Source of the DNA: Armatimonadota bacterium
GTDB lineage: Bacteria > Armatimonadota > Zipacnadia > Zipacnadales > UBA5352
Reading direction: 5' to 3'
NCBI GenBank assembly: GCA_034722055.1
Contig: JAYENL010000319.1
Location: 8,785-54,715 of the forward strand
Length of the DNA: 45,931 nucleotides
The position numbers were made by a program, and so were the translations under genes. A model generated the notes under the pieces. That model saw nothing but the letters and a program-made list of their open reading frames with translations, was not told where the DNA came from and did not search any database. Shown piece by piece: positions 3,934 through 15,654 of this stretch. Position 1 is the stretch's first letter; each line of letters starts with the position of its first letter.

Positions 3934-5094
3934 ATGCTGGCAGCAGAGAGCATAATCGCATGGATCGCGGCACTTGTGGCGGTGTGGTGGCTGATCGACT
4001 GGCTGCAACTCCGCCACGTGGGGAAGGCCCTGCCACTGCGGCGGGCGCCTCTGCGCATCCTCGCGGATGTGCTTGCGAAGCTCAGGCGCAACCGGACCTT
4101 CGTGGGCGCACTGGTGGCGCTGTGGCTTCTGGGAACGGCCGCCTCGCTGATGCGAGCCTACCTGGTGGCGGACATCGGCGGGCCGGCGCCGGCGCGGGCC
4201 ATGCCCATGCTGGCCTGGCTGAGCCGGCCGGCGGAGCTGATCCCCAGGCTGCTTGGCGGCGAGGTATACTGGGCGCTGCCGCGCCTGCGGGAGGTGCCGC
4301 TGACCGGATGGGCGAGTCTGCTGGTGGCGGTGCTGCTGGCCGCCGGGCTCGTTCGGGTGATGATCGATCCGCCCGACGGGATCGATGAGGACGCGGCCCG
4401 CGGCCTGCGATGGCCCATCGCATTCCTGTGCGCCCACGCCGCCGCGGCCGCGGCGGCAATAGCGGCGGGTCAGGACTTCTTCTGGAGATTGGCCGGGCCG
4501 GATGCCCCATGGTACACGCCATGGGTGCTCGGGATTCACGGGCTGGTGCTGGCGGGCGTGCTGCTTGCACCGGCCCACGCGCTGCTGTGGCGGATGATGC
4601 TGGAGATCGCAGGCGACGGCGTCTGGAGCTTTCGCTCCTCGATCCGCGCGGTTGGCGCGACGTGGGGATCAGCTGCGCTGCTGCTCCTGGTCGGCACGCC
4701 GGGGTCCGTCGTCCCAACGGAAGCCATGCCACCGTCGGCGCGCATCCTGAATGCTCTCCCGATCATCATCCACGTGCTGCTGGTCTTCGCGCCGTGGGCG
4801 ATTGTGGACCGCCAGCAGGGGCTTCTCGACGCCCTGCGCCAGAGCTGGCGCCTGTTCCGCCGGCGGGCGGTTGACGTGATTACCTTCGGGCTGCGCTTCG
4901 CGCTGCTGTTCGCGGTGCTGGGTGGCATCGTCGCGCTATTCGAGCCGGACGTCCTGGGTGGCTCGCGAACGCTCCACGGCCCACTGCTGGCGGTGGTGCG
5001 CAACCTCCTGCTGCTCCTGCAGGCGATGACCGTCGCGGGGCTCTACGTGCATCTGCGCGACGAGTTGGCCTGCCAGGCCAGCCCACGCGAATAA
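3934..5094 (+). CDS. Multi-pass membrane protein of unknown function
   Basis: Many hydrophobic helices; ALRQSWRL motif common in uncharacterised membrane domains; GGAG before ATG 3934. Confidence 0.65.
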   Translation: MLAAESIIAWIAALVAVWWLIDWLQLRHVGKALPLRRAPLRILADVLAKLRRNRTFVGALVALWLLGTAASLMRAYLVADIGGPAPARAMPMLAWLSRPAELIPRLLGGEVYWALPRLREVPLTGWASLLVAVLLAAGLVRVMIDPPDGIDEDAARGLRWPIAFLCAHAAAAAAAIAAGQDFFWRLAGPDAPWYTPWVLGIHGLVLAGVLLAPAHALLWRMMLEIAGDGVWSFRSSIRAVGATWGSAALLLLVGTPGSVVPTEAMPPSARILNALPIIIHVLLVFAPWAIVDRQQGLLDALRQSWRLFRRRAVDVITFGLRFALLFAVLGGIVALFEPDVLGGSRTLHGPLLAVVRNLLLLLQAMTVAGLYVHLRDELACQASPRE

Positions 5095-5191
5095 CTCCAT
5101 TCCTCCGGCGAGATGCGCTGCTGTGAAACGCGCACTTCCCCCATTGGCTGCTGTCCTGGAGCGTGCTGATGCCCAGTTTCCCAGCATTCCC

Positions 5192-5221
5192 TTGACAAGA
5201 CCTCAGCAGATCGTCTAAAGT
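5192..5221 (+). promoter_or_regulatory. Sigma70-type promoter of the pilin-like/metal-binding unit
   Basis: TTGACA 5192-5197, 18-bp spacer, TAAAGT 5216-5221. Confidence 0.7.
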
Positions 5222-5252
5222 TAGGCTGGCCTAAGTTAGGAGTGCCTAACTT
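5218..5252. promoter_or_regulatory. Tandem DtxR/IdeR/MntR-type operator boxes
   Basis: TTAGGCTGGCCTAA (5221-5234) and TTAGGAGTGCCTAA (5236-5249); the whole site is bracketed by AAGTTAGG...CCTAACTT and overlaps the -10/+1 region. Confidence 0.75.
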
Positions 5253-5388
5253 CCGGTCGTCGGATGACGGATATGGTAGCTCTGGACGCGGGGAAGCGCC
5301 GGTACTCGTCGTTCGGGCTGCAGGGCACTCTCTTATCGAACGTACAGGAGAAAGACGACCCGCAGCACGCTGCAACGCGCTGCGGGCT

Positions 5389-5465
5389 GGAGACGTGGCA
5401 ATCGCCACGCCCACAGCAGCGATTGTAGCACGTCTCCCCTGTGCCAACAAGCAGGAGGGACGAAT
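5389..5465 (+). promoter_or_regulatory. Conserved structured 5' leader, copy 1
   Basis: GGAGACGTG-GCAATCGC-13-nt loop-GCGATTGT-AG-CACGTCTCC stem, then a CCTG/CAGG stem overlapping the RBS AGGAGG; 66/77 nt identical to 7098-7174. Confidence 0.75.
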
Positions 5466-6149
5466 ATGTTCAGCCACAGACGTGGATTTACGCTGATCGA
5501 ATTGCTGGTGGTGATCGCAATCATCGCGATCCTGGCAGCAATCCTTTTCCCGGTTTTCGCACAGGCGCGGGAGAAGGCTCGCCAGACCTCGTGTCTGAGC
5601 AACCTCAAGCAGATCGGCATCGCAACGAAGATGTACGCGCAGGACTACGACGGGTGTACACCAATCATCAACGTCATGTTCCCGACTCCCCGCGACACCA
5701 CAGAAGGGGACCCGGACGGCCCCCTGTCGCCGATTACAGTGCTCAATCCTTACGTAAAGAACAGGCAGATATTCGTATGTCCGTCGAAGCTGTACGGAGT
5801 GCCAACTTCAGGCCCCTACGAGTTAACCTACGCTTTCTACGGGGCGAACCTGATGGAGAAGTGCTTTGGCTGGCCGCCGGGATGGGCGCCACCCGGATGG
5901 AGTCAGGATTATTGGGAGTTCTACAACGGGCAAATGATCGACAAACTTGCCGTGCACGGCGCGAGCACCGGAGACCCGGCAGCAAAGTACATCGTGCGTG
6001 ACTCAGTGAAAATCGACTACACCCAGGATCCGCCCGTGACGCAATTGCCTCACGTAATGGCGATAAACCGTCTATGCCAGGATGGCCACGCCAAGGTGAA
6101 GCGCGTTCCGCAGAGCGGCATGGGTGCGTACCTGATGTACGGCTTTTGA
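5466..6149 (+). CDS. Prepilin-type N-terminal cleavage/methylation domain protein (DUF1559/H-X9-DG type)
   Basis: [46 protein letters not shown]-terminal [13 protein letters not shown]. Confidence 0.9.
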
Positions 6150-6208
6150 CAGAGGAGAGCTATTCTCGGCTCAAGCAGTCCAATTTCAGCCCTTAGGAGG
6201 AGAGACTT

Positions 6209-7066
6209 ATGGTCAACCGACGCATTTTAGGAACAATCCTCGTACTCGCGGCGATATGCACAGGCCTGGCGCCGGCCGTGGCCCATGACTGGTTCATCCA
6301 GGCGACGGACTACGCGCTGCCCGAGCCGGGCCGGATCGCGTTGTTCATGGGCTGGGGCCACGCGCTACCGCTCGATGACCCCCTCGACGGCGCGAAGATC
6401 GCCACACTGCACATGACCGGCCCGGACGGCGCCGCGCGTGAGATCGCGGTCGCGCCCGGTCGCGGTTACCACTACACGCCCCTGACGCTGGACAGCTATG
6501 GGGTCTGGACACTCCACGGCACCTCGAACCCGGGGTACTACACGATCTACCAGGGGACCGACGGGAAGCAGCACCACAGCACGAAGCCGCTCAACGAGCT
6601 GGACGACGTCGCACGGGTCTTCATGAGCGTGCGCGCGTTCCAGTTTCCGAAATCCTACGTGCTCGTGGGCGACCCAGAGACCGCCGAGATGCCTCACCCG
6701 GTGGGCGCCAAGCTCGAGATCGTCCCCGAGAGCGTGCCCGGTACGATCCACGCCGGCCAGCGGTTGTCCTTCCAGGTGCTCTTCGACGGCAAGCCCCTCG
6801 AGGCCGAGGCGACCTTCGACGCCACGTACCTGGGGTTCTCGACCGCGCCGGAGGACTACATGTACATGGAGCGGCCGATCGTGAATGGCCGCGGCTGGAT
6901 CGATCTCTCACACGAGGGACCGTGGTTCATTCGCGTCCACCACACGCTGCCCGCCCCCGAAGACATGGAGGATGAGTTCAGGAACCTGTACTACGACGCC
7001 ACGCTTGTGCTGCATGTGCACCCCCGCGAGAGCGAGCAGTTTGACCACGCCCACGCGCACCAGTGA
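6209..7066 (+). CDS. Secreted DUF4198 (NikM/NikK-associated, Ni/Co uptake-related) protein
   Basis: Signal peptide ending AVA|H, GWGH motif, LEIVP and FQVLFDGKPL motifs, C-terminal HAHAHQ; AGGAGG RBS. Confidence 0.8.
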   Translation: MVNRRILGTILVLAAICTGLAPAVAHDWFIQATDYALPEPGRIALFMGWGHALPLDDPLDGAKIATLHMTGPDGAAREIAVAPGRGYHYTPLTLDSYGVWTLHGTSNPGYYTIYQGTDGKQHHSTKPLNELDDVARVFMSVRAFQFPKSYVLVGDPETAEMPHPVGAKLEIVPESVPGTIHAGQRLSFQVLFDGKPLEAEATFDATYLGFSTAPEDYMYMERPIVNGRGWIDLSHEGPWFIRVHHTLPAPEDMEDEFRNLYYDATLVLHVHPRESEQFDHAHAHQ

Positions 7067-7097
7067 ACTGCGCAGGTATGCCAGGGGGCCGGGGGCC

Positions 7098-7174
7098 GGA
7101 GACGTGGCAATCGCGACGCGAGCACCAGCGATTGTATCACGTCTCCCCTGCGCCGACAAACAGGAGGGACGTTT
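7098..7174 (+). promoter_or_regulatory. Conserved structured 5' leader, copy 2
   Basis: Same stems, length and distance to ATG as 5389-5465. Confidence 0.75.
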
Positions 7175-7837
7175 ATGTTGAGCAAAAGACGTGGATTTAC
7201 GCTGATCGAATTGCTGGTGGTGATCGCGATCATCGCGATCCTGGCAGCGATGCTCTTCCCCGTTTTTTCCCAGGCACGCGAGAAGGCTCGCCAGACCTCG
7301 TGTCTGAGCAACATGAAGCAGATCGGTCTGGCGATGATGATGTACATGGACGACTACGACGACCAGTTCTGCAAGGTCACGTGCAGTCAAGGCCCCGCCC
7401 CGTATAAGTGGTTCGACCCAATCGACCCTTACCTCAAGAACAAGCAGATCCTGTTCTGCCCGTCACTGCGCGGTCAGAGCGATAAAGGGACGCCAAAGAC
7501 GGACTACGTCCTCAACGGATGCTTCGCCCAGGGCGCGCACCGAGCGATGTTCGACGACCCCTCCGCCCAGATCATGGTCGCCGAGCGCGAGGCGTCCAGG
7601 CCCCGCGAGGGGTACAGGCCCTGGCCCAACGACGGGGTGAGTTGGGATGACCTCAGCACCTATGCGCACGGCGCCACCCCCCACAATCACTTCAACCACC
7701 TTTCCCATGACCGACACAACGGTGGCTGCAACTACACCTTCGGCGACGGCCACGCCAAGTGGCTGCGCTGGGATGCGACCTTCGAGGGGGGCCTTGGGCT
7801 CCCCGGCCTCCACAATCCGAGCCGCATCATTCCGTAA
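7175..7837 (+). CDS. Prepilin-type N-terminal cleavage/methylation domain protein (DUF1559/H-X9-DG type)
   Basis: [27 protein letters not shown]-terminal [17 protein letters not shown]. Confidence 0.92.
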
Positions 7838-7901
7838 CATCCGACTGGCCCCACCAGTTCAGCCAATCGGAGTATCACGAATACGAAAGAAGGATAGGAA
7901 C

Positions 7902-8633
7902 ATGTCACGAGCAGCGAGAGCAATACTTGTCGTGTTGATGGTGGCTTCGACCGCCCTCGCCGTCGCAAATGCCGAGAGCGAGAACCCCTGGCAGGGCTTC
8001 TACGCCGACGCCCCCGCAATCCGGGTCGTTGATCCGATGGTCAATCTCGTGGGATCGACCGTTGACGCTCAGGATACGTTGACGATTCATGTAAGCGATA
8101 TAGCGCTGTACACCGGGCATATCTGCCCTGGTGTCGCGTCAGGGTACATGCTCACGCGCGCTGCGCTCGCTGAGCTGTATCCGGACGGTACTCCGGTTCG
8201 GGGTCACATCCGCGTTGCCGCCTCCAAGCCGGCGTGCTGGCTGGATGTTCCCTCCTACATCACCGGAGCACGCGGCGCGTGGGGCCGCGCCGAAATGAAT
8301 AATGTCAACGATCTGGTCGTGGATCCGCATCTCGACGTGGAAGCTGACGATCATCTGGTCCTCATCTTCCAACGAAAAGACACCGGCGCTGCGGTCCAGG
8401 CGACATTCAACGTGGAACAGATCATGAGCCAGGAACAACACGAGTACTTTGAAGCCTTCCACCTGAGAGTTCTCGAGGGTGCGGCCTCGGAGCAGAAGAA
8501 GCGGGAGACCTGGTCGCGGATACAGTCGCTCGTGAAGAAGGTGCTCTTGGACACTCCCGAGGATCTCTTCGAGATCACGTCCATTGACGATTACGAGTTT
8601 CCTGAAGTCGTCGCACACCATCACGACTCCTGA
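7902..8633 (+). CDS. Secreted FmdE-domain metal-binding protein
   Basis: Signal peptide; YTGHICPGVASGY matches the FmdE (H)GHxCPG motif; C..D...ITG; C-terminal HHHDS. Confidence 0.78.
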   Translation: MSRAARAILVVLMVASTALAVANAESENPWQGFYADAPAIRVVDPMVNLVGSTVDAQDTLTIHVSDIALYTGHICPGVASGYMLTRAALAELYPDGTPVRGHIRVAASKPACWLDVPSYITGARGAWGRAEMNNVNDLVVDPHLDVEADDHLVLIFQRKDTGAAVQATFNVEQIMSQEQHEYFEAFHLRVLEGAASEQKKRETWSRIQSLVKKVLLDTPEDLFEITSIDDYEFPEVVAHHHDS

Positions 8634-8663
8634 GCCCCACGGCGTTCTACGGCCTGATCTCCG

Positions 8664-8696
8664 GCCCAGGCGGAATCCCACGGCCTGGGCTCTTTT
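8664..8696 (+). terminator. Intrinsic terminator
   Basis: GCCCAGGC/GCCTGGGC stem followed by TCTTTT, 30 nt after the FmdE stop codon. Confidence 0.65.
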
Positions 8697-8779
8697 CATG
8701 CAGGCCTCCTGCCCGGCTTCAACGAATCATCTTGCGCACCACTGAACGACAGTCTATCCTCGTCAAGGGACTCACTCAC

Positions 8780-9805
8780 ATGGAATACGTAGTGTTCGGG
8801 AACACCGGACTGAAGGTCTCCAGGTTCTGCCTGGGCGCGATGAACTTCCCGCTTCGCTGCGACTTCGACACGACCAAGGCAACCTTCGCGGACGCATTCG
8901 ACGCCGGCATCAACTTCATCGACAACGCCGACGCCTACGGCCGCGGAGAGTCTGAGGAGGTGCAGGGCCGCGCCCTGGCTGAGCTGGATGTGAAGCGAGA
9001 GAACCTGGTGATCGCCACCAAGTGCTGGGTGAAGATGTTCGACCGGGAGGGAGGCGGCGGAGGCGAGGGCGGCGGCTGCTCGCGGCGGCACATCATCCAG
9101 GCCTGCGAGGACTCCCTGCGGCGGCTGCAGACGGACTACATCGACCTCTACCAGCTCCACCATCCGGATCCGATCACGCCGGTAGAGGAGACGCTGGAGG
9201 CGCTGGACACCCTCATCAAGCAGGGGAAGATCCGCTACGCAGGCGTGTGCAACCACTACGCCTGGCAGATGGCGGAGATGCTGGGCAAGGCCGCCCTGCG
9301 CGATCTGCAGCCCATTGTCTCGGCCCAGGTGCGCTACAACATCATGGACCGGGTGATCGAGAACGAGACCGTGCCCTTCTGCCGGAAGTTCAACGTGGCG
9401 ATAATGGGCTACGGGCCGCTGCACGGCGGGATCTTCACAGGCAAGTACAAGCGCGGGGAGGAGCCGCCGGAGGGCTCGCGCTTCTCCAGCCCGCGGATGC
9501 AGGAGAAGTACCTCACTGAGGACACCTTCGACGTGGTGGAGGAGCTGGAGGACATCGCCCAGCGCAACGGGATGCAGATCAACCAGCTCGCCGTGAAGTG
9601 GGTGCTGAGCAAGGACTACATCACCACACCGATACTGGGCGGCTCCAGGCGCGAGCACTTCCAGCCCATGTACGATCTCTTCGACATGGAGGTCGATCCC
9701 GCCGATCTCCAGCACATCGACGAGATGGGCGAGCAGTACCGCTACCAGCCCTTCGCGAACCAGGCCATGGTGGACGGCTACCCGGCGGCGCCGGGCTTCT
9801 GGTAG
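8780..9805 (+). CDS. Aldo/keto reductase
   Basis: GLKVSRFCLG, GINFIDNADAYG, IATK and SLRRLQTDYIDLYQLH motifs. Confidence 0.93.
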   Translation: MEYVVFGNTGLKVSRFCLGAMNFPLRCDFDTTKATFADAFDAGINFIDNADAYGRGESEEVQGRALAELDVKRENLVIATKCWVKMFDREGGGGGEGGGCSRRHIIQACEDSLRRLQTDYIDLYQLHHPDPITPVEETLEALDTLIKQGKIRYAGVCNHYAWQMAEMLGKAALRDLQPIVSAQVRYNIMDRVIENETVPFCRKFNVAIMGYGPLHGGIFTGKYKRGEEPPEGSRFSSPRMQEKYLTEDTFDVVEELEDIAQRNGMQINQLAVKWVLSKDYITTPILGGSRREHFQPMYDLFDMEVDPADLQHIDEMGEQYRYQPFANQAMVDGYPAAPGFW

Positions 9806-14908: not shown

Positions 14909-15654
14909 TCAGGTCCTGCGCGCCAGCACCACCAGCCGCTTCGCCTCGTGGTCGTAGGGGTCTCCGGCCAGCGAGCCGCAGACCTCGAAGTCCCCGAATC
15001 CCACCTCCGCCAGCAGGTCGGTCAGCTCCGCAGCCGAGTAGAGGCGGTGCTCGAAGGTCCGCTCGATGACCTCCCCGTCGCGGACCATGATCCAGCGGTT
15101 GCGCGCCCGCGTCCAGTCATCGATCACCTGGCACTCCTGAAGCTGCAACGAGCCATCGTCGCAGCGCGTCCAGTCGCGCGGCCGAAAGATACGGGCCAGG
15201 ACCTCCTTGCCCATCATCTCGATGAGCAGGGCGCCGCCGGGCTTGAGCGAGGTGAACAGGTTCTCGGCCACCAGGCGATCTCGGCCTCGTCCTCGAAGTA
15301 GCCGAAGGACGTGAACAGATTGATGGCCGCGTCGAAGGCCGCCGGCTGCCGGTAGCGGCGCATGTCCTCGAGCACCGCCTCCACCTCAAGGCCCTCGTCG
15401 GCCGCAGCTTCGCGCAGCGACCGGAGGTACTCCTCAGTGCGGTCAACCGCGGTGACGCGAAAGCCCCGGCGGGCCAGCTCCAGGCTGTGCCTGCCGGGGC
15501 CGCAGCAGAGATCGAGGATGCGCGCCCCGTCTGGCGGATGCAGCAGCTCCAGCGCCTGCTCCACCTCCTCGGGAGCCCGCTCCCAGCGCTCAGCCCCGAA
15601 CATGGCGGGGCGCCAGGTGGCCCAGAAAGCGTCATCCTCATGCCAGGGCCGCAT
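14909..15654 (-). pseudogene. Class I SAM-dependent methyltransferase split by a 1-bp frameshift at about 15280
   Basis: ILDLCCGPGRH and NLFTSFGYF in ORF 15214-15654; LKPGG and KE..AR in ORF 14909-15271; adding one base restores FEDEAEDRLVAEN. Confidence 0.8.

Follow-up and report, generated by a model that had tools for sequence, protein, structure and literature searches.

The window analysed here, a stretch of 45,931 nucleotides (nt) from contig JAYENL010000319.1 (C319) of an Armatimonadota bacterium (GCA_034722055.1), carries an operon with two DUF1559 prepilin-type genes, a DUF4198 gene between them, and an FmdE-family gene at its end. Each prepilin-type gene is directly preceded by a copy of a structured leader, and this repeated element is the subject of the present work; the coordinates of the features are compiled in Table 1.

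A repeated leader in front of DUF1559 prepilin-type genes

An earlier description of the locus, referred to as the sequence-only reading, had reported a 77-nt duplicated unit whose copies at 5389-5465 and 7098-7174 differ at 11 of 77 positions. This count was reproduced (positions 18, 23, 24, 25, 28, 40, 54, 58, 63, 75, and 76 of the 77-mer). Both window copies form a long bulged stem (P2), and none of the 11 differences falls within its 17 pairs. The chance of 11 changes all missing the 42 paired positions is approximately 6e-5, a value that applies to a structure picked after the sequences had been seen. The assertion that every stem base is invariant is thus correct for the 17 pairs of the long stem when the two window copies are compared, but not for the small hairpin, whose fifth pair (positions 54 and 63), U-G in copy 1, is lost in copy 2. 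Nor does it extend to all copies described below: across 11 copies, 94.1% of the 187 P2 cells are paired, 11 cells are broken, and 3 of the 17 pairs are changed on both sides. The duplication itself is evident, but its extent had been underestimated, as alignment of the copies identified the 77-mer as the 3′ part of an element of approximately 120 nt that starts at an A-rich run and includes a further hairpin, P1 (5358-5387), which is absent from copy 2. In the opposite direction, the window copies stay alike past the ATG, with 149 of the first 170 coding bases being identical; therefore, the copied block is the leader plus the pilin N-terminus. Loops and bulges, previously described as unpaired positions, also hold conserved letters, namely, in the first half of the apical loop, at the bulge A, and at the CAA of the small loop.

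The homolog search that the sequence-only reading had suggested brought the total to 11 copies in 5 of the 18 genomes of one Armatimonadota family, each located just before a DUF1559 prepilin-type start. Five of them belong to the genome studied here, two in the window and three full copies on contig C95, all before DUF1559 genes, and six further copies were found in 4 of the 17 other genomes of the family. A partial fourth copy on C95 beside a 100-N gap was taken as an assembly duplicate and left out of all counts. The leader is restricted to a minority of the family of genes it precedes, as only 5 among at least 43 genes with a pilin-type start in this genome carry it. A pilin-type start follows 10 of the 11 copies; after the eleventh, the first ten codons are fused to an unrelated frame. 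Outside the family, no copy was found with model R1 in 49 genomes of the order or with model R2, for which stricter filters were used, in 61 genomes of the class, many of the genomes in both sets being incomplete. Within the family, 13 weak R2 matches (12 in other genomes and 1 in this genome) were dismissed, as they had neither a promoter nor a pilin start. In a metagenome search, the first pattern gave no match and the second gave two stretches, at chance level and without the rest of the element; a viral scan gave four matches, all of them chance matches likewise without the rest of the element, and a pattern search of a genome collection returned four records with no new copy.

To the 5′ side of the element, 95 nt of spacer are 0.49 to 0.57 identical to copy 1 in 7 of 8 comparisons, which is the level of shuffled sequences (0.51 to 0.52), while the element itself is 0.70 to 0.90 identical to copy 1 across the same comparisons. 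This difference argues that the element is under selection. Searches with Rfam 15 gave two chance-level matches (E values of 1.7 and 8.4) within positions 4900-8800 of the window and no match at the gathering score in four loci, aptamer models included, in agreement with the sequence-only reading, in which no known riboswitch had been recognized. No prior description was found in a literature search that left subscription papers mostly uncovered and did not extend to the supplements of RNA-motif surveys. Judged by these comparisons, the element is real, selected, and undescribed.

A predicted antisense gene on the minus strand

Most of the conserved letters that appear unpaired in the leader are best explained by a putative promoter and terminator on the minus strand, which had been overlooked in the sequence-only reading. 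Its proposal of a new cis-regulatory RNA was apt in that the element is selected, structured, and without a match in Rfam, but it missed this second strand. On the minus strand, the small loop followed by the 3′ arm of P2 spells out TTG, 17 nt, TGn, and TACAAT. Specifically, the first T of the −10 hexamer corresponds to the invariant bulge A, the n of TGn to the second, free base of the bulge, and the TTG of the −35 hexamer to the CAA conserved in the small loop.

For promoter scoring, 2646 upstream regions of this genome, defined by rough gene calls and excluding the leader genes, served to train a matrix. The minus-strand site scores 11.3 to 18.6 bits in 10 of the 11 copies, the median of 404 called promoters being 16.9 bits; such scores are reached by 0.1 to 0.5% of 2461 antisense windows and by 0 to 2 of 200 shuffles. 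For copy 1 (15.4 bits), the corresponding fractions are 0.3% of the antisense windows and 1 of 200 shuffles, and the antisense sites score in the same range as the sense promoter of the operon (14.7 bits). The motif TGnTACAAT occurs 22 times in the genome, five times in these copies, and 11 of the 17 other occurrences lie outside called genes, in a genome that is 85% coding. Two copies depart from the pattern: that on G005:C79, with the −10 hexamer changed to TAGACT (still 13.5 bits) and three inner P2 pairs broken, and the second copy of G016, in which the −10 and −35 hexamers and the perfect P1 are lost together.

P1 has the properties of an intrinsic terminator read from the same strand. 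It is present in 9 of the 11 copies, imperfect in one of these nine, absent in copy 2, and cut by a contig end in the remaining case. The imperfect cells of the nine full copies comprise 10 A-C, 2 plus-strand G-U, and 2 other combinations; as an A-C mismatch of the plus strand becomes a G-U pair in the complement, P1 pairs better on the minus strand. It is more stable on the minus strand in seven of the nine copies, and RNAalifold applied to the plus strand missed most of it. The eight bases following the stem contain four to six T on the minus strand and zero or one on the plus strand, the reference being a mean of 1.9 for 463 hairpins located after stop codons. Only 12 of 754 promoter-like sites in the genome have a terminator-like hairpin 40 to 100 nt further on, and four of these 12 are the four P1-bearing copies. 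Between 5000 and 8800, there are two promoter-like sites, one of which is the copy 2 antisense promoter, and P1 is the only terminator-like site.

Between promoter and terminator, the first half of the apical loop and the 5′ arm form an 8-pair hairpin in which 95.8% of the cells are paired on the minus strand (9 copies) versus 81.8% on the plus strand (11 copies). For the fold of the complete antisense RNA, 96.3% of 189 cells are paired in nine copies. With the start placed 7 to 8 nt past the −10 hexamer, an antisense gene giving an RNA of approximately 65 nt with two hairpins, from about 5415 to 5350, probably exists. In copy 2, P1 is cut to a remnant of its right arm, the hairpin formed by segments A and B is damaged, and identity to copy 1 over the 60 bases 5′ of the 77-mer amounts to 22 positions; having kept promoter and switch and lost the terminator, this copy may be regulated in trans or may be decaying.

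Table 1. Features of the leader-bearing operon in window coordinates
Feature	Position	Strand	Basis or remark
Sigma70-type promoter of the operon, predicted (TTGACA, 18 nt, TAAAGT)	5192..5221	+	14.7 bits, genome-trained matrix
Two tandem TTAG-N6-CTAA boxes (5221-5234, 5236-5249) over −10 and start site	5221..5249	.	Probable DtxR-family operator
P1, predicted intrinsic terminator of the antisense RNA: 13-pair stem 5387-5358, then U-rich run	5348..5387	-	
Predicted antisense RNA of ~65 nt: 8-pair hairpin (4-nt loop), 3-nt linker, terminator	5350..5415	-	Fold prediction
P2 of copy 1, long bulged stem of the mRNA leader; 5′ arm is segment A (5389-5398)	5389..5437	+	Fold, 3 of 17 pairs double-changed
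First hairpin of the antisense RNA; mRNA counterpart is the alternative A:B hairpin	5392..5411	-	Cell pairing by strand
Predicted antisense promoter of copy 1: TTGTTG (5450-5445), 17 nt ending in TGC, TACAAT (5427-5422)	5422..5450	-	15.4 bits
Anti-Shine-Dalgarno helix of copy 1: segment C (5431-5441) with segment D (5452-5462, Shine-Dalgarno inside)	5431..5462	+	
DUF1559 prepilin-type gene 1, 227 amino acids (aa)	5466..6149	+	PF07963, PF07596, TIGR02532
DUF4198 gene, 285 aa, between the two copies	6209..7066	+	PF10670, E 2.9e-33
Copy 2: P2, anti-Shine-Dalgarno segment (7140-7150), and Shine-Dalgarno segment (7161-7171) intact	7084..7174	+	
Predicted antisense promoter of copy 2: TTGTCG, 17 nt ending in TGA, TACAAT; terminator absent after it	7131..7159	-	18.6 bits
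DUF1559 prepilin-type gene 2, 220 aa, C-terminal H-X9-DG motif	7175..7837	+	TIGR04294
FmdE-family gene, last of the inserted cassette	7902..8633	+	PF02663, E 8.7e-14

Two folds of the mRNA leader and competing explanations

The mRNA leader can adopt two folds. Segment A (5389-5398) pairs either with segment C, as in P2, or with the loop, and segment C pairs either with A or with segment D, which contains the Shine-Dalgarno sequence. An anti-Shine-Dalgarno switch had been proposed in the sequence-only reading and is borne out by the wider comparison, the helix being longer than stated: segments C and D form 11 pairs, with 95.9% of 121 cells paired. The sequence GGAGGGACG is invariant in 11 of 11 copies, which exceeds the need of a Shine-Dalgarno sequence, and the surplus letters are matched by segment C. 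Across the 11 copies, the energy difference between the two folds ranges from −1.5 to +6.1 kcal/mol; the three most open-biased copies are the promoter-less copy (6.1), window copy 2 (5.5), and one intact C95 copy (5.5). When the target of the antisense RNA is masked, the cost of opening the Shine-Dalgarno site rises in 11 of 11 copies, by 1.0 to 8.7 kcal/mol, compared with 0.0 ± 1.5 kcal/mol and at most 3.3 kcal/mol in 38 other DUF1559 leaders. For the DUF1559 control set, 20 of 62 tblastn matches had been removed, being without a pilin-type start, having short upstream DNA, or containing N. A co-fold of copy 1 with the antisense RNA shows the anti-Shine-Dalgarno helix. A leader peptide is not indicated, in that no upstream open reading frame (ORF) led by a Shine-Dalgarno sequence recurs across the copies.

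The repeat, the evidence that it is selected, the match to a promoter, the strand-biased terminator with its U-run, and the two folds are all computed; from them, we infer an RNA that would be made from the predicted start, bind the leader, lower translation, and serve as a threshold. Specifically, we favor with moderate confidence that the element is an antisense-RNA-driven translational attenuator. mRNA from the upstream promoter would run through the entire element. The leader alone would mostly adopt P2, with segment A holding segment C and the short hairpin alone covering the Shine-Dalgarno sequence. The second promoter, which on the opposite strand spans the small-hairpin loop and the 3′ arm of P2, would give rise to the RNA of approximately 65 nt ending at P1, with full complementarity to P1, to segment A, and to the loop of P2. 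Binding of this RNA would free segment C for the 11-pair helix with the Shine-Dalgarno region, and translation of the pilin-like gene would stop. In the window operon, a DtxR-family repressor would act on the sense promoter and the antisense RNA would set a threshold, such that protein synthesis would require metal to be scarce enough for the mRNA to exceed the antisense RNA in number.

Several observations weigh against this model. The 11 copies are related and come from five genomes, and since the shuffle tests ignore relatedness, the counts overstate independence. The promoter was spotted first and scored afterwards, and the P2 stem alone could explain part of the −10 conservation. The U-runs following P1 are interrupted. 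No pair with a double change is present among the 11 copies of the anti-Shine-Dalgarno helix, and no pair of the first antisense hairpin is changed on both sides. The closed fold is already slightly more stable in 3 of the 11 copies, and opening of the unmasked leader costs 1.8 to 9.9 kcal/mol versus a mean of 4.6 kcal/mol in other DUF1559 leaders; the unmasked leaders being no more open than controls, a simple on-by-default reading is weakened. Copy 2 has the best promoter score (18.6 bits) yet no terminator, a combination for which the model has no need. Finally, no sense promoter could be clearly identified upstream of two C95 copies out of three.

Alternatively, the antisense RNA may be real but act in another way: the facing promoters may collide, a long duplex may be formed and cut by a double-strand RNase, or the targets may lie elsewhere, with the anti-Shine-Dalgarno helix being secondary. 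Such modes of action fit all of the promoter and terminator evidence, the two predicted start sites (sense and antisense) facing each other approximately 190 nt apart, the retention of a promoter without terminator in copy 2, and the lack of covariation in the anti-Shine-Dalgarno helix. They are nevertheless rather unlikely in view of the complete invariance of GGAGGGACG, including the letters that serve pairing with segment C, and of the masking calculations, which close the Shine-Dalgarno site in every copy but not in controls. Unlikely to a greater degree is a switch confined to the sense strand, in which the equilibrium between P2 and the fold combining A:B with the anti-Shine-Dalgarno helix is shifted by a ligand or protein, the match to a reverse promoter being incidental. 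The energy gap between the folds is small enough for a shift by a ligand, and P2 shows compensatory changes. However, P1 and A:B pair better on the minus strand, where the U-run is also found; the conserved unpaired letters fall on the −10 and −35 hexamers, with no conserved pocket or junction remaining; and the copies stand under different regulators, without a recurring upstream ORF or an Rfam family. The specific suggestion of a metal-sensing RNA finds no support either, as the three same-genome copies on C95 sit in a locus without metal-repressor boxes.

Fixed hairpins for message stability or processing, or leader DNA merely carried along when the 5′ ends of pilin-like genes are duplicated, would be compatible with the shared coding bases of the two window genes, whose likeness is partly due to recent copying, and with the position of copy 2 within the operon, where a 5′ hairpin could stabilize a processed message. 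Against this, the spacer has fallen to shuffle level across genera while the element has remained 70 to 90% identical, a stabilizer acting on the sense strand would gather plus-strand G-U rather than A-C, and the promoter match is left unexplained; we therefore consider this possibility quite improbable. Of all explanations considered, a DNA hairpin at which pilin cassettes recombine, or a mobile repeat resembling repetitive extragenic palindromic (REP) sequences, is the least credible and has a very low probability. In its favor, reshuffling has occurred, as the nine complete genes carry at least seven variable domains and one copy precedes an unrelated frame; the genome also has six Y1_Tnp matches, and single-stranded DNA hairpins can likewise show strand bias. 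attC sites carry RYYYAAC and GTTRRRY cores at their hairpin ends, but neither motif was found in any of the 11 copies on either strand. There are at most five copies per genome, the five copies of this genome have one orientation and a fixed distance to the start codon, neither C319 nor C95 contains a Y1_Tnp match, and the shared DNA stops approximately 170 to 180 nt inside the gene and not at the hairpin, as homologous exchange via the conserved N-terminal region would give. REP elements associated with RAYT transposases typically occur as many dispersed copies in varied gene contexts, with a tetranucleotide foot and a transposase flanked by repeats. Assignment to this class was rejected, since the five copies all lie before pilin-type starts and GTAG is absent or found at varying places.

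A further extension of the attenuator model was considered, according to which antisense gene, switch, ribosome-binding site (RBS), and pilin N-terminus travel together as a portable control cassette placed on varied domains, and the five antisense RNAs of this genome form one cross-reacting pool by which the pilin-like paralogues are counted or made mutually exclusive, much as incompatible plasmids count each other. Induction of one operon, e.g., by metal shortage, would then titrate the pool and change the surface proteins made. In calculations, the predicted RNAs bind the other P1-bearing leaders with −24 to −57 kcal/mol net and copy 2 with −9 to −14 kcal/mol net, the Shine-Dalgarno sequence being paired in both cases, whereas 38 other DUF1559 leaders give a mean of −2.9 and a lowest value of −6.6 kcal/mol. 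We regard this extension as unlikely.

Operon control, cassette structure, and related systems

Between the operon promoter and the ATG, no other plus-strand site reaches 6 bits. The TTAG-N6-CTAA boxes overlapping this promoter resemble the consensus of DtxR/IdeR/MntR-type repressors. Four such boxes are present in the genome, with 11 expected from composition: two at the window operon, one before the DtxR-family gene of the genome, and one elsewhere. A box precedes the PF02742 gene in five of six loci examined. As in a DtxR regulon, a palindromic box thus lies over the promoter and is held in common with the promoter of the repressor gene, and the boxes are probably the operator of a DtxR-family metal repressor. 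Such an operator is an ordinary element, belonging to the operon promoter and not to the repeated leader: boxes are found at six leader-bearing loci but not at the C95 copies, and metal sensing is therefore assigned to the repressor protein rather than to the leader RNA. In a sixth genome (L046:1501-2150, G004:C361), promoter and box precede another gene, encoding a membrane protein, without a leader.

The single DtxR-family gene of the genome (L044:1243-3206, G000:C324) carries the box within its own promoter, and the GTPase frame after it looks like FeoB, a hint of iron or manganese. At their C-termini, the DUF4198 protein has a histidine-rich tail (7018-7066) and the FmdE-family protein has three histidines, which would be fitting for a metal-handling operon. 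Two C95 copies (L001, approximately 31045-30990 and 27755-27700) have in common a further upstream sequence of approximately 50 bases, possibly a separate promoter or operator.

Visual inspection of 10 relatives showed five in which the membrane-protein and reductase genes that flank the cassette adjoin directly, with no cassette between them; the operon is therefore an accessory insert. Among the nine complete leader-bearing genes, at least seven kinds of variable domain are represented, with only two close pairs (55% and 70%); neither window gene ranks within the top five matches of the other. In a tree of the N-terminal DNA, the leader-bearing genes cluster (4 changes versus 8.2 with shuffled labels), a result that neither shows nor excludes one origin. 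Exchange through the conserved N-terminus would explain the domain shuffling. At L006:1-1030 (G005:C825), an unrelated frame of approximately 314 aa, for which no NCBIfam match was found, continues in frame from the leader plus ten N-terminal pilin codons, and this fusion precedes the same reductase gene as the window cassette. At the cassette position after the membrane-protein gene, L058 (G009:C116) holds a DUF1559 remnant without promoter, leader, and N-terminus.

DUF1559 prepilin genes are also split by an insertion element at one site (IAI^IAI codons, a small palindrome), with 5-base duplications; 15 of 16 insertion-element ends in the genome are at this site. Three complete miniature elements of 106 bases were found (C57:9082-9187, C64:8231-8336, and C149:39749-39854, all in G000), while the rest, of two sequence types, run off contig ends (C28:274, C106:86869, C154:80536, C176:115, C203:318, C230:6038, C250:5249, C269:74, and C275:119). 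A leader-bearing gene of G011 (L005:1660) is interrupted at the same site by a related end, and no transposase was recovered for this element. Elsewhere in the window, a methyltransferase-like gene on the minus strand (14909-15654) is apparently split over two frames (ORFs 15214-15654 and 14909-15271).

The closest parallels to the proposed attenuator come from plasmid copy control. RNAI of pSK41, a staphylococcal RepA_N plasmid, is described as a counter-transcribed RNA of approximately 83 nt with two stem-loops that is complementary to the rep leader and whose binding was proposed to induce a stem-loop hiding the rep RBS (PMC5703833). The two have in common a short antisense RNA, predicted in the present case, with two stem-loops and a target upstream of a translation start, and here too binding may induce an RBS-hiding helix. 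They differ in RNA length (approximately 65 versus 83 nt) and in the distance of the target end from the start codon (approximately 50 versus 100 nt), and the present element is multicopy, has no Rfam match, and is located on a chromosomal DUF1559 prepilin-type gene instead of a replication initiator.

Two further systems outlined in that text resemble the element in part (PMC5703833): segment A would hold the 5′ arm of an inducible stem, as does the pre-emptor of pT181, and a repressor of the sense promoter combined with a convergent antisense promoter would give two layers of control, as with CopR and RNAIII of pIP501. However, pT181 and pIP501 induce a transcription terminator, whereas the predicted helix here is without a U-run and is followed by a spacer and the start codon; the output would therefore be translational. 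Unlike that of pIP501, the repressor would be a metal sensor. The repABC plasmids encode a counter-transcribed RNA (ctRNA) from a 55- to 59-nt antisense gene in an intergenic leader; without ctRNA, the mRNA forms a large stem-loop leaving the Shine-Dalgarno sequence free, and ctRNA induces a terminator (PMC3155836, PMC10194956). Size and placement are similar to those of the present RNA, but repB and repC are lacking here and the Rfam ctRNA models gave no match. Membership in a plasmid copy-control RNA family was rejected, as the downstream genes are DUF1559 genes, with no replication gene and no Rfam match. The other genes of the window look chromosomal.

The reach of the element is narrow, comprising one family and five genomes. 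If the proposed model is true, a plasmid-style antisense attenuator would operate on a chromosomal multigene family of a little-studied phylum, and some 120 bases would act as promoter, RNA gene, and mRNA switch together. It would also show that conserved "unpaired" letters of an apparent riboswitch can be a promoter of the opposite strand. DUF1559 proteins are abundant and little studied, and the element, in one operon with a probable link to a metal repressor, would offer a concrete handle on the regulation of some of them.

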